Positions 9,358-24,269 are shown, counted from the stretch's first letter. The stretch: DNA of 25,060 nucleotides from Microcoleaceae cyanobacterium (GCA_051652765.1 JBOFUV010000070.1:1-25060); one strand, 5' to 3'. Notes: a model not told the origin generated them from the letters alone. Program-made: numbers and translations.

Positions 9358-9965
9358 GCGGTTGCCTGGGCGAGTTCTTGCCATCGTTGATGCCACAGTT
9401 GCATTGCATTTTGACTCCCATGAAACTCGTCAAAGGCTTGGCTCTGAAGCTCGAGTTCAGGGGCAAGACGTTCTAGAGACTCAAAGCTGACACAGTACCC
9501 TAAAACTTGCTGCCAGCTTTCTCGCCAATGCTGGTAGGATCGTTGACGCTCTCGCAGGGGTCTAAGACGCTCTTGTTCCCGTGCCCGCCGAAGCGCAGTA
9601 ACCTTGAGCTGCTCGGCTCGATTCTTCCAGGTTGAGCGCCATTGTTCGAGGGTGGCTGAACTGTAGTGGGCCGAATAGGATTCGATTTCAGCCCGCAGGA
9701 CTTCTCCCAAAGTTTCTAAGGCAGCCCGACTATCACAGTGCTGAATTGCTTCAATCCCAGATTCAATCCAGAGAGGCAGGCGGCGGTAGCTCACAAACAC
9801 ACTTCGGGCTCCCAGAACTTTGACCCAAATTTGAGACTCCCAGAGTTCTAGGGACTCAATTTGCCGGGGAGCTATACTAAGTAACATCGCAACCTCTAGC
9901 CAGACCCTTGCTAGAGACCATTGGCCTGGGTTGATTGTGCCTGCGGAGAGTAAGTTCTGAGCCAT
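9354..9965 (-). CDS. Hypothetical protein with Trp-rich helical C-terminal region
   Basis: 203-aa ORF convergent on hisS with a 4-bp overlap; IWVKV...FVSYRRLPLW segment; function not recognised. Confidence 0.75.
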   Translation of the reverse strand: MAQNLLSAGTINPGQWSLARVWLEVAMLLSIAPRQIESLELWESQIWVKVLGARSVFVSYRRLPLWIESGIEAIQHCDSRAALETLGEVLRAEIESYSAHYSSATLEQWRSTWKNRAEQLKVTALRRAREQERLRPLRERQRSYQHWRESWQQVLGYCVSFESLERLAPELELQSQAFDEFHGSQNAMQLWHQRWQELAQATA

Positions 9966-10133
9966 AGTGAGCCATGCCTAGATTCTGGAGGGTAAACCTG
10001 CGACAAACCTATTTGTAAACCTACATCTAGTGTTTCTTAGGATTGCTTGCTCATCTTAACCCTACATTTAGCTATTGTCTAGCGGCAGATTAATTCAACA
10101 TTGGTTCAGTCCAGAGGGCCAGTGGTTTGTCAA

Positions 10134-10454
10134 TTAAATCAGGAATTTCTGAACGTACTGAATGAGTTCGGGAGTTTTCATGACTCCTCTAATTCGAGCT
10201 GCAAGTTCCCGATCAATAAACAGGAGAGAGGTGGGCAGGGCTCTAATTTCATGCTGCGTGAGAAGCTGAGGATATTTGTCAGCGTTAACCTTGATCACTT
10301 GCAATTGATTCTTCATTTGATCCTTAACCTGCTCTAGAATCGGCGCAAACATCTGACTAGAACTACACCAGCTAGCATAAAAACAAACTAAGATGGGCGT
10401 AGTCGAGTGATTAATCAGGTCTTCTAAACTGGAAAACTGTTGCTTAACTGCCAT
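10134..10454 (-). CDS. Thioredoxin-family protein (y-type-like N-terminus) with atypical WCSSS active site
   Basis: MAVKQQFSS start, PILVCFYASWCSSSQMFAP, IRALPT cis-Pro loop and RIRG; canonical sequence is DFxAxWCGPC. Confidence 0.85.
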   Translation of the reverse strand: MAVKQQFSSLEDLINHSTTPILVCFYASWCSSSQMFAPILEQVKDQMKNQLQVIKVNADKYPQLLTQHEIRALPTSLLFIDRELAARIRGVMKTPELIQYVQKFLI

Positions 10455-10495
10455 TTTTACTACTCACTAATGGCTTATTGTTGACATTGCATTTA

Positions 10496-10516
10496 GGGGT
10501 GGGAAATACCCACCCC
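10496..10516 (-). terminator. GC-rich hairpin downstream of the 427-aa gene (terminator or mRNA stabiliser)
   Basis: GGGGTGGG-5 nt loop-CCCACCCC; no U-tract on the minus strand. Confidence 0.5.
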
Positions 10517-10532
10517 ACTGCGGTTATTCCTG

Positions 10533-11816
10533 TTATTCCTGCTGTTGAACAGGAGAAATTTGAGTTGTGTTAATTGGGCAGGATAGAGTTGCATCAATCT
10601 CTTCAACTTTGCGGATTCTTCGAATGAGAATAATCTCCTCTTCCCGCCGAATAATCGTACGCACTGGAGTAACACAAACGATGTCTTGTTCGCGATTGAG
10701 GTTCCAGAGTTCATCACTATTCCAAGGCAGTGAAACAGATATGTCTGTCTTCTCAAGATTCACATTGACACTACTAGAACCTGAACCTGAAGTACCAGGA
10801 GGTACAACGCTTGGGCTACCGGGAGTTGCGCCTACTCCTGCATAGCCTGAACCTGAAGTACCAGGAGCTATAACGCCTGCGCCACCGGGAGTTGCGCCTG
10901 CACTGCCAGTAGTAACACTTGCCCAATAACTGGGGTTGCTGTAGCGACTATTCTCTAAGTCAACGGGCGTAATTGATAGAACAACCTCTCCTTCATTATC
11001 ATTGTGAAGTGTGTCAAAGAAGAGACCAAAGAGTGTTGTTTTTTCATTGACTTTGATGGTCAATTTTTCTTGATATCCATTGAGTGAACACCAACTTTCA
11101 GAAACTGCACTCTCTAGTTTCTGAGAGGGATACTTCGGGATCACTTTGCCGCCTTTCAACCAGATCAGAGCCCAAGGCTCTAGCTCGAATTTCTTATCCG
11201 ATTGCCAATAGCTAATTTGGCCACTCTTGATCGCAATCTCGTAATCTCCTGGCTCTAGCTCAATAAAATTGTAACCAGATTTCTTAATCGCTTCCAACCG
11301 ATTAGTCTTCAGTTTCCAACAGTTTTCTGGACTCTGAATATCGAGAACTTTTTGGTTTTCTGAGGACAAATCTGTGATCGATACCTTAACATTACCACCT
11401 GAACTGATTTGACCTTCGACATCCAAAAATAGCGCACATACAGTAGCTTGCTGACCTGCTCTCACCTCAATCTTCAGATCATCATCCAGTCCATTTAGAG
11501 TTGTCCAAGTTGTACCAATCTCGCGACCTGTATTGAGATTTACAAAAGGGGTGCCGCCATGACCAAAAATCCAGATCACAACTAGGGGCTCGCCTTTAGC
11601 CTGAGTGTTTTGAAAACTGTACCAACCACTCTCAATTTTAATCTTATATCTTCCCCCGTCCAAGACCTGGGAGCGAGCAACTTTTTGCTCTAGATTTGGC
11701 ATTATTTCCTGATCTGAAAAATGATAAACGTTATCATTGGATGACTTGTCAGGAATCACATAGCACGTATTTTTGCCATGAATTTTTAGCTCTTTTACAT
11801 CTGTTGGACTCATCAC
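10533..11816 (-). CDS. Hypothetical protein: two tandem beta-rich domains, Gly/Pro/Ser linker, and a C-terminal module shared with the 77-aa protein
   Basis: Strong AAGGAG Shine-Dalgarno before GTG ATG (11816/11813); internal repeat motifs GxYxIxIxSG, EPxxxIW, WxxLNG, LFxD and VxxSIT. Confidence 0.9.
   Translation of the reverse strand: MMSPTDVKELKIHGKNTCYVIPDKSSNDNVYHFSDQEIMPNLEQKVARSQVLDGGRYKIKIESGWYSFQNTQAKGEPLVVIWIFGHGGTPFVNLNTGREIGTTWTTLNGLDDDLKIEVRAGQQATVCALFLDVEGQISSGGNVKVSITDLSSENQKVLDIQSPENCWKLKTNRLEAIKKSGYNFIELEPGDYEIAIKSGQISYWQSDKKFELEPWALIWLKGGKVIPKYPSQKLESAVSESWCSLNGYQEKLTIKVNEKTTLFGLFFDTLHNDNEGEVVLSITPVDLENSRYSNPSYWASVTTGSAGATPGGAGVIAPGTSGSGYAGVGATPGSPSVVPPGTSGSGSSSVNVNLEKTDISVSLPWNSDELWNLNREQDIVCVTPVRTIIRREEEIILIRRIRKVEEIDATLSCPINTTQISPVQQQE
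10780..10899. repeat. Intragenic duplication with 66-bp period encoding GATPGxxxVxxPGTSGSG twice
   Basis: Copies at 10780-10833 and 10846-10899. Confidence 0.9.
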
Positions 11817-12001
11817 TTTATCTCCTTTGTAGACTTATTTTCAGACTTGAACTTACAGACTTGAACTGATATCAATTGGCTTGAATAACTGACAAGCACT
11901 GCTCAATAAGATGACTAATTCCTTTATCTCCGTCTACTTCCTCTGGTTAATGAATAACCACCTAACTCAGTGAAACTTTTACCCAATAAGCTTACCAAAA
12001 T

Positions 12002-13060
12002 TTACCGAACCATCTGTCGAAGCCGATTGTAAAGTGATAGATTGCCCTGTTGTTGAGCTAGCTCCAAAGCATGGTTAAAATCTGGAATTGCTAACTCAGA
12101 CTCATTGAGCTTTCGGTAAACTAGCCCCCGATTGTAGTACGCTTCGGAATAATCTGGGCTTCGTATAATTGCTGCTTGATAACTGATCAAAGCCTGCTCA
12201 TAATCTTGTCGATCATAGTAGACATTGCCCCTGTTATTGTAGGCTTGAGCATCATCTGGACTGACTAGAATTGCCTGATTATAGTCTGCTAAAGCTTCTA
12301 GATAGTTTTTTAAATCATAGAAAACACTGCCACGGTTATTATAAGCTTCAGCATAATTAGGATTAATGGCAATGGCCTGATTGTAATCCCCTAATGCAGC
12401 TTGATTTTGACCAAGAGCATAAGCTGCTGTTCCTCGATTATTATACGCTTCGGCATAATAGGGATTTAGAGCAATGGCCTGAGTATAATCTGCAACTGCC
12501 TCTGGATAATTTTCTAGAGCCCGATAAGCATTCCCCCGATTGTAGTAAGCTCGAATGGATTCAGGATTAATCTGAATTGCTTGATCGTAATCTGCAACAG
12601 CTTCCTCGTAGTACCCCAAGTTGTAGAATGCATTTCCACGATTATTCAAAGCAGATGATGAGGCTGGGTTAAGCTGAACTGCTTGGGTATAAAAGTTAAT
12701 AGCCTCTTGATAATCATGCTGGAGATAACAAGCATTTCCTTTGCCATAATAATCTTCATAACAGTCATTAGCAGCAATCAAAGCAGCAGTCTGAATTTCA
12801 GGCCGAACAGGAGGCAATTGCTTTGCTAATTGAGCCACTACGAGAAGATCATCTAGGGGTGGATTGGATTCGCTGGGTTGACTATGAGCAAGATCAATCA
12901 ATTGGGTGCTAATTTTAGAACCCTCTGTGAACTGGTTCTCATCAAAATCTTCTTCCCCTTTTGAGTCAGCATCCTCTACCTTTTGAGAGCTTGGAGCCGA
13001 TATAATCACAAAGAGCAAAACAAATAGAATAACAACTGCAACAACTACATCCACAAACAA
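12002..13060 (-). CDS. Membrane-anchored tetratricopeptide repeat protein (about 7 TPRs)
   Basis: N-terminal hydrophobic helix VVVAVVILFVLLFVII, acidic linker, then 34-aa AYNNRG...DYNQAI.INP repeats; TTG start uncertain. Confidence 0.9.
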   Translation of the reverse strand: MFVDVVVAVVILFVLLFVIISAPSSQKVEDADSKGEEDFDENQFTEGSKISTQLIDLAHSQPSESNPPLDDLLVVAQLAKQLPPVRPEIQTAALIAANDCYEDYYGKGNACYLQHDYQEAINFYTQAVQLNPASSSALNNRGNAFYNLGYYEEAVADYDQAIQINPESIRAYYNRGNAYRALENYPEAVADYTQAIALNPYYAEAYNNRGTAAYALGQNQAALGDYNQAIAINPNYAEAYNNRGSVFYDLKNYLEALADYNQAILVSPDDAQAYNNRGNVYYDRQDYEQALISYQAAIIRSPDYSEAYYNRGLVYRKLNESELAIPDFNHALELAQQQGNLSLYNRLRQMVR

Positions 13061-13248
13061 GATTAACCCTACCGCCGTTTCAGTACAAAAATAATATCTG
13101 GAACTGACAACAGATCAAAAACCATCAAAAACCAACTAAGTTAATTAAAATCTTGCCCTTAACAACTGAGACCTTGCCGAGACGTTCACAGAGCTGATTC
13201 TATGACTTAAATCTGTGCCATCAATTGTACTTACAGACTATAAACAAT

Positions 13249-13290
13249 CTAATGACAAGACCAAGCCACATCGGCTGATCTTGCCATTAG
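13249..13290 (-). terminator. Long 3' hairpin after the 77-aa gene
   Basis: Minus-strand RNA CUAAUGGCAAGAUCAGCC-GAUGU-GGCUUGGUCUUGUCAUUAG; two G-U pairs form only on the minus strand; no U-tract. Confidence 0.6.
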
Positions 13291-13304
13291 GTTTAATTAA
13301 AAAT

Positions 13305-13538
13305 TTAACCTTGGGAAGCAACTTGAGTCGTATTTACAGGACATGCTGGGCTAGCATCAACTTCCTCAACTTTTCTGACCTTACGAATCAAAACAACTTC
13401 CTCTTCCCGTCTGACAATTGTGCGAACTGGAGTTACGCAAACAATATCCATCCGAGGATCGCGAGGAAAGCTATCAAAGCTTAAAGCATCAATATTACCA
13501 AGGACGATTTGGTTAGCAGCAGATTGTGATTGATTCAT
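13305..13538 (-). CDS. 77-aa hypothetical protein, stand-alone copy of the C-terminal module of the 427-aa protein
   Basis: 32/42 aa identity to the region 10560-10685 with many synonymous codon differences, which supports real coding; AGGTG SD-like sequence upstream of the ATG. Confidence 0.88.
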   Translation of the reverse strand: MNQSQSAANQIVLGNIDALSFDSFPRDPRMDIVCVTPVRTIVRREEEVVLIRKVRKVEEVDASPACPVNTTQVASQG

Positions 13539-13727
13539 GTTTCAACACCTATAGGAGATTAGATGATAGAGTTATTCATCTGAAGTAGTATTTATCACAA
13601 ACTCCAGTGACCTTGGGTTAAGCTCAGGTAAATAACAGATTCAAATTGAGCCAAGGTGAGACTGATGCTCCGCCTGATCAAGGGTTCCTAACAATTTAAG
13701 TACGACTCAAGAATGTTAAGACATCTG

Positions 13728-15050
13728 TTATAGCCTTAGATCTGATTTTGTTTCGCATCCTTGCTCTGCAGCTAGAAAGTCCACAAATTGACGAGCTGTT
13801 CGTCCAGAGCGTCCATTATGACGAGTTGCCCATTGTAGGGCCTGAAACTTCAAGTCTTCTGGCAGAAATTCTAGTCCTGCTTGAACAGCAAGATGGTCAA
13901 CAATTTTGAGATAAGTCGTCTGATCCGCAGGCTCAAAGGTTAAGGTCAGGCCAAAGCGATCGCTAAACGACAGTTTCTCCTGAACCGTGTCCCAAGCATG
14001 AATTTCATCTTGATCTTTGGGCCGGGGCCGATCTTCAAAAAATTCCCGCACCAAATGTCGTCGGTTAGAGGTGGCATAAACCACAACATTTTGAGGACGA
14101 GCCGTTACGTTTCCTTCTAGAACAACTTTCAACGCTTTGAACACATCATCATCTTCTTCGAAGGACAAATCATCAACAAAAATAATGAACTTTTGTGGTA
14201 ACCCTCGAAGCTTTTCCAGCACAACCGGCAAATCCTCTAGGTCAGATTTTGAGACTTCGATCAACCGTAAACCGCGATCGCGATACTGATGCAAGAGGGC
14301 CTTAATTAAGGAGGACTTGCCTGAGCCTCGACTCCCATACAACAAAACATTTTGGGCTGGATATCCTGCTAGAAGAAATTCCGTATTTTTTACCAATAAA
14401 TCCCGTTGAGATTCATAACCCACCAGTTGATTAAGACATACTGGATCTGGGTAAAGAATCTGGATTAATTCTCCTTGATGCCAACGAAATGCTATGGTTC
14501 TAGCAAACAAACCCGTGCCAAATTGTCGATAATAATTGGTCAAAAGTTCTATCGCATCTGCCCAGGTTTCTAAAGCAGTTAATTGATGCTGGATTGGCAT
14601 TGATTCAGCGTGGCTAGGTGTCGTCTGCCAAACTACGGGTGCTTCAGCTAGAGGCGCAATCATTTGTACCCATTGACTTAACTGTTCTCCACTACAACAA
14701 TACAGCGATTGCAACTGGATTAAATCAGATTGAGCCGCCGCAATTAAGGCTAAGGACAGACGGTCAAATTCTGTATGTTGGGATTGCTGGGTAAACGGAT
14801 TGTCCGCCGTCAAAATTTGAGTCACTAAATACTCTTGCCAACTCTGCTGGGCCTGAGCCTGAACCGTAAACCAAACCCCATAGGCATTTAAACACTCTAA
14901 ACCATTGGTTTCATGTTGCAGGGCCGTCAATAAATTCAAAAAGGCTTGACCTAGGTCTCCATCCAATACACCTCGATACAGCAAAAGAGATGCCGCTTGA
15001 CGTTGTAGCGTCCGAACTTGAGAAATGACTTGAGGGTTAATTGAGGACAT
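13728..15050 (-). CDS. AAA+ ATPase, DUF815 family
   Basis: Walker A GSRGSGKSS, Walker B FIIFVDDLSFE, YATSNRRHL, EKLSFSDRFGL and GRSGRTARQF motifs. Confidence 0.92.
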   Translation of the reverse strand: MSSINPQVISQVRTLQRQAASLLLYRGVLDGDLGQAFLNLLTALQHETNGLECLNAYGVWFTVQAQAQQSWQEYLVTQILTADNPFTQQSQHTEFDRLSLALIAAAQSDLIQLQSLYCCSGEQLSQWVQMIAPLAEAPVVWQTTPSHAESMPIQHQLTALETWADAIELLTNYYRQFGTGLFARTIAFRWHQGELIQILYPDPVCLNQLVGYESQRDLLVKNTEFLLAGYPAQNVLLYGSRGSGKSSLIKALLHQYRDRGLRLIEVSKSDLEDLPVVLEKLRGLPQKFIIFVDDLSFEEDDDVFKALKVVLEGNVTARPQNVVVYATSNRRHLVREFFEDRPRPKDQDEIHAWDTVQEKLSFSDRFGLTLTFEPADQTTYLKIVDHLAVQAGLEFLPEDLKFQALQWATRHNGRSGRTARQFVDFLAAEQGCETKSDLRL

Positions 15051-21647: not shown

Positions 21648-24269
21648 TTATAACCAGTTTCCAACTAAGACAAAAGCCGACCAAAAATAAGGGTGGCTAA
21701 ATTCTTTTTCTTGAAGTAATTGTTGTTGAGCATAGCGTAAAGCTTCTGACTTAGTTGTCCCTACTTTGTTAAGTTCTTGGTAGAAATTGCTCATTAATAA
21801 TGCAGTGGATTGATCATCAACAGACCATAAACTTGCGATGGTACTGCGTGCCCCTGCTCGGACTGCCATTCCTGCTAATCCCAATCCAGCTCGATTATCC
21901 CCAGAGGCAGTTTGACAGGCACTAAGAATAATCAGTTCAATGGGATTGATTTGTTTGGAATCAGCACTCAATAAACGACGTAATTCTTCAATATTAATCC
22001 GTTCATCCCAAGTTAGAACAAAAGTATTCTCGGCATTGGAGCTGAACTCTCCATGGGTCGCAAGGTGAATAATCGTATAAGGATTTTGGGCAATGGCTGA
22101 ATTCACTTGTAGCTCAGTAAAAGTTTCATTCAATAATGTTTTTGTCCGACCCACTTGACGACGAATTTGTTCTAATTCCTCTTCTACTGCAGGCAGAGGA
22201 GGAAATCCCTGCCGACCAACACTCAGTCCTCCTCCCAGAACATTAATTTTTTGCTTGTTTTGAGCAGAAGATAAATCAGTTAACTGTAAGCCGGGAGCGA
22301 TCGCAACTCCATATTTTTCGACCAAGTAATTTTCACCATCATACAAACTAGCAACCGGAATACTTCGCATTTTACCGTCTAAAATAAAGACTAAAGTTTG
22401 GATTTTACTCATCTGGAGTCCATTCTCGACGGGACGAACTAGCCAGTCATAGATCCGTTGAGAAGGCTCTAGAAAGTTTTCAATAAAGACTCGTTTTCTA
22501 GGAACAGTGATTGCCTCTTGTAGTTCTTGTAATTGCCCTTCAATTTCAGTTTGAGACAGATTAATCCGATGATGAATGAGAGATTGATTAGGTAGGGTAA
22601 CAATTACTTCTAGACGGTCAGGCAACAGAATAGTATAAAAAATTGCTGCTTTAGCATCAATGTTTTCAACGTTAACAGGTTTGACATCTAAACAAGCATC
22701 TCGAAAGAAATTATCTAATTCAGCAACTTGTAATGATTCCAACACATTCCTAGCTTGTTTCAAGTTTTCTTGACTCGGTTCTCCCTCTAGCAAGAGACCC
22801 GCCAGCTCTCGATATACAGGTTCAACTTGTGCTCGAAAATCAAACTGAATATCTGAACCAATCGCCACAATATCACTTCGTAAGGATTGCAAACTTGCCA
22901 TAGCTTGAGTGTAGGCAGAAATAGCGATTGTGCGATTGTTTCTCCTATTTAAAACTCGTCCGAGTTGCCACTGCCATCGATAGGCAATATCAGTAGCATT
23001 GATTTCTTGAGCTAAAATAAGTGCTTTTTCTGTTAGCTGTTGTGCCTCACTAAACTGTTGGTTGTGTTCATATAAATTTCCCAAAAGCCCTAACCCATAA
23101 GCTTGATTGCGCTTATCTCCCAAGATTTTTGCCATTTGAATTGCATCAGTTAGATAATCCGCAATCTGAATTGCCAAAATTCTGGGGTGTTCGGTAGTGT
23201 GTTCAGTGGTGGGATTAATTTTACTTAAATTAATTAAGCTTTGGGCTAGGTTAATCTGTCCCTGAACTTTAACTGAAGATGCAGAAAGTTGCTTCAGCAA
23301 AAACTCAATTTCCGAGAGCAGATCAAGTGCTGTATTCACTTGCTGTTGGTCTACTAATATACTCAGTTGATTCAGGTGAGCTTGAAGTTTTAACTCGGGT
23401 GAACTTGAGATTTGAAATGCCATTTGATAAAAGTTGACTGCTGGTTCAAACTGTTTTGCTAATCTTGCCGTATTCCCCAGACTAATTAAACTAATGGCCG
23501 TTTGTTCGGTGTCTTGAAACTGTTTAGCCAAAGCCAAACTTTTCTCTAGAGCAGTCTGGGAAGTCTCTAAACGTCCGACCTCCCGCAACACATCTCCTAA
23601 ACTTTGTAGGGCTTTTGCCTTGAGCAGAGAATCAGATTGCTGACTTAACTGTTGTTCAGCCGCAACCAATTTTTTCAAGGATTGGGAATATAATCCTAGA
23701 CTTTGTAGGGCTTGGGCTTGGTTGATTTGACTCCGAATCCATCCCGTCCAATTATCAGTTTTTTGGTGAATTTCTCCGGCTATTTTCCAGGTTTCCAAGG
23801 CTTGTTCAGGATAACTGGTGAGTAACTGCAGTTGACCTTGAGCATCTAGAGTTGAAGCTTGAAGCTGTTGAATTGTTTCAGCGTTTGGTTGTTCTTTTAG
23901 TAACTCTTTTAACGCTGTTAAGGAATTTGAAATTGCTAGTTGTGCCTGTTGCCAATTTTGGGATTTCAAATGAACCAACCCCAGATTTCTCAAGGCTCTA
24001 GCCATTCCTAGGCGATCGCCCCGATCGGCATAGGTTGCAATGGCTCGTTCTAACAATAACGCACTTTCAGTAAAATTCCCTTGTTCATAAAACTGTTGAG
24101 CTTGGGTTTCTAAGGTATTTTGAGTGATATTCTGGGTAATAGTGCAAGGTTGGTTGTGCTTGAATTGGGAAGTTCCCACTCTACATTCAGGGCTAGATTC
24201 AATCGCTTGGATGGAGAAGTCAGGAACAAAAGCAATCGTTAATCCAATCAATCCTAGGATGATTTTCAC
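21648..24269 (-). CDS. TPR-containing CHAT domain (caspase-HetF-like) protein, probably exported
   Basis: Signal-like N-terminus, TPR-like helices, IHLATHGEF and LSACQTA catalytic His/Cys motifs, HPYFWSAFVLVGNWL terminus. Confidence 0.93.
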   Translation of the reverse strand: MKIILGLIGLTIAFVPDFSIQAIESSPECRVGTSQFKHNQPCTITQNITQNTLETQAQQFYEQGNFTESALLLERAIATYADRGDRLGMARALRNLGLVHLKSQNWQQAQLAISNSLTALKELLKEQPNAETIQQLQASTLDAQGQLQLLTSYPEQALETWKIAGEIHQKTDNWTGWIRSQINQAQALQSLGLYSQSLKKLVAAEQQLSQQSDSLLKAKALQSLGDVLREVGRLETSQTALEKSLALAKQFQDTEQTAISLISLGNTARLAKQFEPAVNFYQMAFQISSSPELKLQAHLNQLSILVDQQQVNTALDLLSEIEFLLKQLSASSVKVQGQINLAQSLINLSKINPTTEHTTEHPRILAIQIADYLTDAIQMAKILGDKRNQAYGLGLLGNLYEHNQQFSEAQQLTEKALILAQEINATDIAYRWQWQLGRVLNRRNNRTIAISAYTQAMASLQSLRSDIVAIGSDIQFDFRAQVEPVYRELAGLLLEGEPSQENLKQARNVLESLQVAELDNFFRDACLDVKPVNVENIDAKAAIFYTILLPDRLEVIVTLPNQSLIHHRINLSQTEIEGQLQELQEAITVPRKRVFIENFLEPSQRIYDWLVRPVENGLQMSKIQTLVFILDGKMRSIPVASLYDGENYLVEKYGVAIAPGLQLTDLSSAQNKQKINVLGGGLSVGRQGFPPLPAVEEELEQIRRQVGRTKTLLNETFTELQVNSAIAQNPYTIIHLATHGEFSSNAENTFVLTWDERINIEELRRLLSADSKQINPIELIILSACQTASGDNRAGLGLAGMAVRAGARSTIASLWSVDDQSTALLMSNFYQELNKVGTTKSEALRYAQQQLLQEKEFSHPYFWSAFVLVGNWL

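Follow-up and report, generated by a model that had tools for sequence, protein, structure and literature searches.

A cysteine-bracketed module common to small proteins and lectin-like carriers defines a gene cluster with a membrane-anchored tetratricopeptide repeat protein and a thioredoxin in cyanobacteria

The stretch of DNA analysed here – referred to below as the window – comprises 25,060 nucleotides from a Microcoleaceae cyanobacterium (GCA_051652765.1 JBOFUV010000070.1:1-25060). Four of its genes encode a 77-residue protein, a tetratricopeptide repeat (TPR) protein with a transmembrane helix, a 427-residue protein and a thioredoxin-fold protein (Table 1). Two of these, the 77-residue protein and the C-terminus of the 427-residue protein, share a 42-residue core bracketed by cysteines, to which an earlier note, made from the sequence alone, had drawn attention; its coordinates for both copies, and their placement in open reading frames (ORFs) of the minus strand, were correct. 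The four genes turn out to be the minimal core of a recurrent gene cluster, and both the protein family defined by the module and the cluster itself match no known system, making the finding novel at both levels.

Table 1. Positions of the module genes, their parts and the other cluster genes in the window.
Feature	Position	Strand	Basis
Small module-only protein, 77 residues	13305..13538	(-)	ORF, ATG start
Conserved unit of the small protein: aromatic pre-motif (residues ~16-26) and two-cysteine charged core (31-72)	13323..13493	(-)	Alignments
Module core of the 77-residue protein	13323-13448	(-)	
TPR protein, 352 residues, one N-terminal transmembrane helix, between both module genes	12002..13060	(-)	Pfam TPR_1
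Large module carrier, 427 residues: two beta-sandwich domains, Gly/Ser/Pro linker, C-terminal module	10533..11816	(-)	ORF, GTG start
Two tandem beta-sandwich (jelly-roll) domains, residues 5-295, tentatively of PA-IL/LecA-like lectin fold	10932..11804	(-)	VIA-align
Disordered linker, residues 296-367, with an internal 54-nucleotide tandem duplication	10716..10931	(-)	AlphaFold2, repeat search
Module core of the 427-residue protein, residues 378-419	10560..10685	(-)	BLASTP against the 77-residue protein
Cluster-specific thioredoxin-fold protein, 106 residues, CxxS instead of CxxC, extra upstream cysteine	10134..10454	(-)	Pfam Thioredoxin

As the earlier note had stated, the two proteins appear unrelated outside the module: BLASTP aligns this segment alone, with 32 of 44 residues identical, 43 of 44 positive and no gaps (E-value 1e-23 in a single comparison). 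Its count of 32 identities in the 42-residue core, with six Val/Ile exchanges and one Lys/Arg exchange, likewise holds by direct reading. At the DNA level, the copies (repeat family D2) are 70% identical over 132 nucleotides (93 of 132); different codons are used at 19 of the 32 identical residues, and the proportion of synonymous differences, 0.75, corresponds to saturation, with a nonsynonymous divergence (dN) of 0.157. Saturated synonymous sites combined with a low dN argue that the resemblance is an old duplication maintained by strong purifying selection on the protein – as the earlier note had suggested – rather than a recent DNA repeat. A recent repeat, gene conversion in the window's genome and an assembly artefact are all ruled out by the 70% nucleotide identity and the saturated synonymous divergence, and the saturation of synonymous sites also rules out an RNA-level explanation of the shared segment. 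A precursor of a ribosomally synthesised and post-translationally modified peptide can be dismissed too, as the segment occurs on large folded proteins, at either end, and maturation enzymes are not conserved.

Invariant features of a 24-sequence alignment (A1) are the two cysteines, each followed by a proline immediately or nearly so, and the runs of Arg and Glu; the second Cys-Pro, which lay outside the pattern by which modules were selected, is present in all 118 unique modules. Approximately 40% of the core residues are charged by direct reading, a conserved acidic EE-[VI]-D stretch occupies an internal position, and the alignments reveal no hydrophobic helix in the module. The 42-residue core delimited in the earlier note stands but is not the whole of the conserved unit, which in most family members takes in a weaker aromatic motif, some 15 residues long, immediately upstream. 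The 15 orthologues of the 427-residue protein (alignment A2) average a pairwise identity of 0.82 in the module, compared with 0.57 in the folded domains and 0.19 in the linker; no other part of the carriers is as conserved in this comparison.

The earlier reader's impression that the module belongs to no recognised family is confirmed by the searches. The 77-residue protein matches no family at an E-value of 1 or below in Pfam-A 2025 and NCBIfam r20 and nothing in PADLOC 2.0, and its best match among PDB sequences has an E-value of only 1.1; the sole Pfam match of the 427-residue protein, to DUF2846 (E-value 0.011; 16.3 bits against a cut-off of 34.3), lies in its N-terminal cargo region. NCBIfam contains no matching sorting-signal profile of the PEP-CTERM, LPXTG or T9SS CTD type, and this, together with the lack of a hydrophobic helix and the existence of eight N-terminal and three internal modules, argues against a C-terminal sorting domain. 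Searches of the literature by motif strings, locus tags or domain combinations found nothing on the family, whose members are annotated in their source records as 'hypothetical protein' or by their cargo only ('vWA domain-containing', 'fibro-slime domain-containing').

A word-indexed search retrieved 80 small relatives of 57-124 residues – the named ones all cyanobacterial and labelled 'hypothetical protein' – and a second search 67 longer carriers. Because an exhaustive HMMER profile search of 1.84 billion representative proteins yielded only 56 clusters at E-values up to 1e-3 (51 of them up to 1e-10), the family is a narrow one with sharp limits, and no remoter relatives emerged; its source-named matches are cyanobacterial without exception. 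In an even sample of the class, the module is found in 10 of 401 genomes and 9 of 168 genera, the window's genome included, and in none of the six other sampled genomes of the window's own family. Each of the 10 positive genomes has three to five matches, never a lone copy, and the distribution is thus patchy and all-or-none, with several copies wherever the module occurs. The window's genome has three carriers: the two recognised in the earlier note and one that was out of its view on another contig, a 326-residue beta-propeller protein (DUF6923/DUF4394; L062 7250-8230 (-), contig C8). This third gene lies between those for a 1083-residue multi-glycosyltransferase and a 484-residue TPR protein, the latter being followed by a GT2 glycosyltransferase, and its surroundings hint at a connection with polysaccharide synthesis.

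When one genome per species was scanned, 112 of 146 candidate stretches were confirmed; they make up 57 loci, or 59 with the window and the third copy. A hidden Markov model of the module identifies 134 carrier ORFs in them: 68 small ones (at most 135 residues), 55 with a C-terminal module, 8 in which the module is close to the N-terminus and 180-330 residues follow it, and 3 with an internal module. The expectation that small and large carriers would co-occur and be syntenic across cyanobacteria is borne out, since in each of the 59 loci all module genes are on one strand, and 34 of the loci contain both kinds of carrier, many of the others being short contigs; in addition, one to three module-only genes are among the at least three carriers of each positive genome. 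The usual gene order is one or more small genes, the TPR gene, one or more large carriers and the thioredoxin gene. A TPR orthologue occupies the same position as that of the window in 31 of the 59 loci, a thioredoxin orthologue closes the cluster in 32, and 24 have both. The window's TPR protein matches TPR_1 of Pfam (E-value 2e-63) in seven stretches and hence contains multiple repeats, and an N-terminal hydrophobic helix is found in 31 of the 32 members of the TPR protein cluster. In most TPR proteins, as in the PA14-domain carriers with a transmembrane helix, the basic flank lies on the side that, by the positive-inside rule, predicts a cytoplasmic domain; the probable location of the system would be the cytoplasmic face of a membrane.

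The thioredoxin-fold protein of the window is identified as such by PF00085 (E-value 3.1e-19; 69.3 bits against a cut-off of 23.5), and it scores 80.9 bits with TIGR01068, under the equivalog cut-off of 96.8. Its active site lacks the CxxC dithiol and reads CxxS, a form shared by 11 of the 32 cluster thioredoxins, the window's included, the other 21 having CxxC. An extra cysteine six residues upstream accompanies the CxxS motif in 11 of 11 cases and is found in none of the 21 CxxC forms. We take its position to be that of the buried Asp26, next to the resolving cysteine, in Escherichia coli thioredoxin, which would suggest that the extra cysteine is a relocated resolving thiol. Such a coordinated change implies that the thiol chemistry of the cluster thioredoxin is under selection within the cluster. 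Genomes whose clusters lack the thioredoxin have only paralogues of 40-45% identity elsewhere.

Other genes near the module genes vary between lineages. Hydrolase-like neighbours without the module occur in L007, L012, L018, L019, L030, L054 and other related loci; the GH13 alpha-amylase family is found among the neighbours of 12 loci, and further neighbours include an endonuclease/exonuclease/phosphatase (EEP) family protein, a Tle1-like phospholipase domain, an XendoU plus lamin-tail domain (LTD) protein and an AAA_35 NTPase with a pentapeptide-repeat protein upstream. In variant clusters devoid of both the TPR and the thioredoxin gene, the corresponding position is taken by a 467-residue protein with an N-terminal hydrophobic region, a long acidic tail and no Pfam family (L054 7460-8860 (+), also L055 and L060). 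In the window, a gene for a DUF815 AAA-type ATPase (13728-15050 (-); Pfam E-value 2e-96) is the immediate upstream neighbour of the small module gene, with which it shares its strand; it groups with none of the recurrent neighbour families of other loci and is probably outside the system. An 873-residue ORF (21648-24269 (-)) joins the TPR protein cluster by BLAST grouping. Scanning positions 9900-13800 for promoters and terminators gave nothing interpretable – 14 promoter-like sites where 7.8 +/- 2.9 were expected, and a single terminator-like site, on the wrong strand – and Rfam and tRNA scans of the window returned no matches.

The domains to which the module is fused, a point raised in the earlier note, are varied and of ligand-binding type. 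Among 30 larger carriers scanned with Pfam, nine contain PA14 and six DUF4394/DUF6923 propeller repeats (one carrier has both), one contains TPR repeats, four have weak matches only (including PA-IL, E-value 0.0036, and VWA_4, E-value 0.0014) and 11 have none. The architecture proposed for the 427-residue protein – two globular domains and a flexible linker – is supported by an AlphaFold2 model based on 15 orthologues, in which residues 41-290 form two beta-sandwiches with a predicted local distance difference test score (pLDDT) of ~77-96 per 10-residue block, and residues 296-367 fall below 50. When this model was compared with 48,161 chains by VIA-align, the top three matches were all of PA-IL type (6ygq_A, Z 7.4; 3zyb_A, Z 6.6; 5odu_A, Z 6.5), with 95-101 residues aligned and Z-scores under the tool's caution line of 8. 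PF07828 is weakly matched by a relative, P0113 (E-value 0.0036; 17.8 bits against a cut-off of 22.5), and occurs in 17% of the members of a cluster in a language-model list of look-alikes (score 0.90, rank 11). Pfam gives no significant match for the beta-sandwich domains themselves, and Foldseek against the PDB only weak two-jelly-roll matches (bicupins, a Pleurotus lectin) with TM ~0.1, so that a PA-IL-like nature of this cargo is tentative. Free-standing single copies of the PA-IL-like domain, without the module, are also encoded in clusters.

In one carrier, P0099, a double beta-sandwich of the window's type has the module at its N-terminus; together with the other N-terminal, internal and C-terminal carriers, this argues that the module is position-independent and linker-tethered. 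The linker is ~70 residues long in the 427-residue protein, longer in the closest relative (L004) and ~10-25 residues in most orthologues, and that of the window contains a direct repeat (D4; 10780-10833 and 10846-10899, 54 nucleotides, 91% identical). Neither module protein of the window begins with a hydrophobic, signal-peptide-like stretch, in agreement with the earlier note, and no signal peptide was seen in any carrier read by eye. The only canonical DUF4394 protein of the window's genome (676 residues; L061 691-2721 (+), contig C152) likewise lacks an N-terminal signal peptide and contains many Gly/Asp-rich nonapeptide-like repeats. We presume it to be an RTX-type substrate; RTX-repeat proteins are exported without a Sec signal.

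If the modules had merely diverged after an old duplication, that of a large carrier would be equally distant from the small-protein modules of its own and of other genomes. In fact, in 46 of 53 carriers (and in 29 of 33 loci) it is nearer to that of its own genome, the mean difference being 2.3 of 42 residues; as the loci are mutually related, these counts do not amount to a statistical test. This family-wide co-variation within genomes indirectly supports homotypic assembly as a candidate function. Structure prediction gives no confident fold for the 77-residue protein (AlphaFold2, mean pLDDT 55; no usable match in the ESM Atlas) and, for the module within the 427-residue protein, a low-confidence hairpin with strands at 378-386 and 394-402 (pLDDT 46-61); these monomer models would fit a segment that folds on binding. 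A complex predicted from two copies of the small protein and residues 360-427 of the large one scored 0.02, against a mark of 0.32, in a run without controls, and this score speaks neither for binding nor against it.

The explanation we favour, with a probability of roughly 0.4, is that the module is an autonomous association domain which joins module-only and lectin-like proteins, and whose two invariant cysteines are controlled by the thioredoxin. A unit of ~45-60 residues, tethered by a flexible linker and functional at the N- as well as the C-terminus, would gather module-only small proteins and ligand-binding proteins in one complex: in the window's genome the double PA-IL-like beta-sandwich protein and the beta-propeller protein, and in other genomes also PA14/fibro-slime, vWA-named and PA-IL-like proteins. 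The modules would bind to one another or else to a shared partner – the TPR protein in the membrane being one possibility – and the two cysteines bracketing the charged core would serve as a redox latch, through an intra- or intermolecular disulfide, set or reset by the cluster's own thioredoxin. An association domain is suggested by the conservation of the module, its never-alone occurrence, its clustering on one strand, its independence of position, the disordered linker and the co-variation, and further by the unconfident monomer fold, which would fit folding on binding, and by a TPR partner that is membrane-anchored in 31 of 32 cases. The redox latch is suggested by the invariance of both cysteines and by the recurrence of a thioredoxin with coordinated active-site variation.

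Several observations weigh against this explanation. Among the 10 loci with flanks of at least 3 kb on both sides and at least two module genes, only six have both the TPR protein and the thioredoxin, and a variant type of cluster, well flanked, is without either (e.g. L045, L054, L055). A single module gene is present in 18 of the 59 loci; many of these are truncated contigs, but L026, L051 and L052, all of them carriers with an N-terminal module, are true singletons. The window's own pair displays no co-variation (32.0 versus 31.9 of 42), and where co-variation does occur it could stem from lineage-specific duplication or gene conversion instead of co-adaptation. The low-confidence fold of the module may simply reflect a shallow, low-diversity alignment. 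Finally, PA14, DUF4394 and PA-IL-like domains are usually extracellular elsewhere, yet the carriers read by eye have no signal peptide.

Among the competing explanations, the one that comes closest, although itself improbable, denies any contact between modules: the module would be only a recognition tag, by which each carrier docks separately at the membrane onto a receptor without the module – most likely the transmembrane TPR protein – and the small proteins would be docking competitors or regulators. In 31 of 59 loci the TPR gene separates the module genes, the third carrier of the window's genome is also followed by a TPR protein, and the small protein looks disordered as a monomer in the AlphaFold2 model, as might suit a TPR ligand, given that TPR domains typically bind extended peptides; the EE-[VI]-D stretch, moreover, resembles what we take to be the ligand of the TPR clamps that bind Hsp70 and Hsp90. 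That stretch is internal, however, and the known clamp requires a free C-terminus; TPR genes are so common in cyanobacteria that their adjacency to the third copy is weak evidence, a whole variant type of cluster has no TPR gene, and a mere tag leaves unexplained why every positive genome has at least three carriers, module-only genes among them. Unlikely to a similar degree is a polymer. In such a case, the module would be the polymerisation unit of a new scaffold of filamentous cyanobacteria, made in the cytoplasm and latched by disulfides, with a backbone of module-only proteins, carriers of lectin-like, PA14, propeller and vWA type as its decorated subunits, the membrane TPR protein as nucleator or anchor, and the thioredoxin, a natural monothiol in some lineages, timing the covalent locking. 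Of the earlier note's interpretation, the co-occurrence, synteny, novelty and architecture have held; the homotypic fibre itself, with the small protein as major and the large one as minor, tip-forming subunit, stays a proposal. The note had missed the membrane-anchored TPR protein, the dedicated thioredoxin and the carriers with N-terminal modules, and these accord equally with a fibre and with a domain for docking or association under redox control.

Alternatively, though with rather less to commend it, the module might be a non-classical determinant of export or sorting, with Sec-less carriers that build an extracellular network of lectins on sheath or exopolysaccharide; only outside would disulfides then form, and the thioredoxin would keep the cysteines reduced until then. 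The cargo is indeed of surface or secreted type, by its PA14, DUF4394/DUF6923 and PA-IL-like domains as by its vWA and fibro-slime source names; signal peptides are missing from the carriers read; the record titles of named carriers point almost solely to filamentous taxa, which are largely mat- or sheath-forming, with Scytonema sp. NIES-4073, Leptolyngbya sp. JSC-1 and Lyngbya aestuarii BL J among the named records; and the glycosyltransferases around the third copy, the flanking GH13 amylase genes and the RTX-repeat-like DUF4394 protein of the window's genome fit the same picture. A terminal secretion signal would be unusual in the eight N-terminal and three internal positions, none of the clusters examined conserves a transporter, the N-terminal transmembrane helix of some PA14 carriers has its positive flank on the module side and so predicts a cytoplasmic module, and the thioredoxin and most TPR domains look cytoplasmic as well. 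We consider it very unlikely that the module resembles CP12 in being a switch, conditionally disordered and regulated by thioredoxin, which when oxidised would fold and clamp a conserved housekeeping target, with the fused domains and small proteins as alternative regulators: small size, predicted disorder, two invariant cysteines, a linked thioredoxin and the existence of stand-alone and fused forms would all be in keeping with it, but the CP12 profile of Pfam does not match the 77-residue protein at an E-value of 1 or below, an occurrence as patchy as 10 of 401 genomes speaks against a universal housekeeping target, and lectin-like cargo has no obvious tie to metabolic regulation. Fainter still is the prospect of a conflict or immunity system, in which the module would act like a death-fold or amyloid signalling motif, ligand-binding sensors nucleating the polymerisation of module-only adaptors. 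A motif common to adjacent genes is the hallmark of bacterial amyloid signalling pairs, which are reported from filamentous cyanobacteria (bioRxiv 10.1101/2020.01.06.895854), and some loci have the effector-like EEP, Tle1-like, XendoU plus LTD and AAA_35 neighbours. These neighbours are without the module and lineage-specific, though; no NLR (NB-ARC/NACHT) protein or recognised membrane-disrupting effector among the carriers scanned bears the module, and PADLOC models match the core proteins only as generic TPR. The charge of the core is a further objection, as amyloid signalling motifs are not known to be highly charged.

Whichever explanation applies, the module ranks with the most conserved short segments in the proteins of these genomes, yet is absent from the curated family libraries searched. 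It defines a multi-gene cluster, patchy among mostly filamentous cyanobacteria, in which module-only proteins occur together with several lectin-like carriers, the membrane-anchored TPR protein and a specialised thioredoxin. If it is a homotypic or docking domain, it would represent a new bacterial way to build multivalent glycan-binding complexes and provide protein engineers with a compact tag that can be switched by redox state. The natural CxxS variants of the thioredoxin can serve as substrate traps just as they are, and so bring the redox hypothesis within direct experimental reach. Should the carriers be exported, this would indicate that lectins have a non-Sec route not yet described; to our knowledge, the surface route of some signal-less bacterial lectins, such as LecA, is itself unresolved. 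Should the polymer prove real, it would constitute a new class of bacterial assembly system, with a part in matrix or sheath organisation or in signalling.

Comparison with known systems brings out both parallels and differences. As in the dockerin-cohesin pairs of cellulosomes, where one conserved module of ~60-70 residues is linked to many functional proteins and gathers them on a common scaffold, a single module recurs here on diverse carriers. However, it has neither sequence relation to dockerin nor Ca-binding repeats, being characterised instead by two invariant cysteines and a charged core, and its setting – module-only proteins, no signal peptides seen, a transmembrane TPR protein and a thioredoxin as partners – is different; no dockerin or cohesin family was reported for the carriers or their neighbours in the Pfam scans. 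In the bacterial amyloid signalling (BASS) pairs, a shared motif ends a Bell-domain effector and begins the NLR-like protein (NB-ARC/NACHT plus repeats) encoded alongside (bioRxiv 10.1101/2020.01.06.895854). The likeness extends to a short motif of collinear neighbour genes in filamentous cyanobacteria, placed terminally after a flexible stretch and proposed to template homotypically, and the module genes are on one strand in every locus, 34 of the 59 loci having both small and large carriers. The present module differs in being longer (~45-60 residues), highly charged and cysteine-bracketed, in having no Bell or NLR partner and in occurring on three to seven carriers per genome rather than in a pair. 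Membership of BASS is rejected because the Pfam scans found no NLR or Bell partner, Bell having had no test of its own: NB-ARC and NACHT had no match above the Pfam cut-off in six window proteins and 30 plus 20 other proteins, the nearest approach being a sub-threshold NACHT match of the DUF815 ATPase (E-value 0.029; 14.7 bits against a cut-off of 26.7), which lacks the module.

CP12, a small thioredoxin-regulated scaffold of cyanobacteria and plastids that is disordered as a monomer, has paired cysteines and exists in free and fused forms, is reminiscent of the module in these respects; its motif is different, the module's occurrence is patchy, and the cargo is lectin-like rather than composed of CBS domains. 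The lectins PA-IL (LecA), PllA and EclA may resemble the cargo, being the top three structural matches of its beta-sandwiches, with the weak PF07828 match of one member besides, and LecA, too, has no signal peptide. Unlike the window's protein, the known lectins do not bear the module, and the likeness is limited by Z-scores of 6.5-7.4, under the confidence line, and by the lack of a Pfam match for the window's protein. The disulfide-linked endospore appendage (Ena) fibres of Bacillus (PDB 7a02, 9i0y) are built from small jelly-roll subunits that assemble inside the cell without Sec and are cross-linked by cysteines, which in Ena sit in the N-terminal connector of the jelly-roll subunit itself. 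The resemblance there is a generic jelly-roll match to the cargo and not to the module (VIA-align Z 5.0-5.4), and no sequence relation exists; Ena fibres are nevertheless the nearest precedent for the idea of a small major subunit combined with a disulfide latch.

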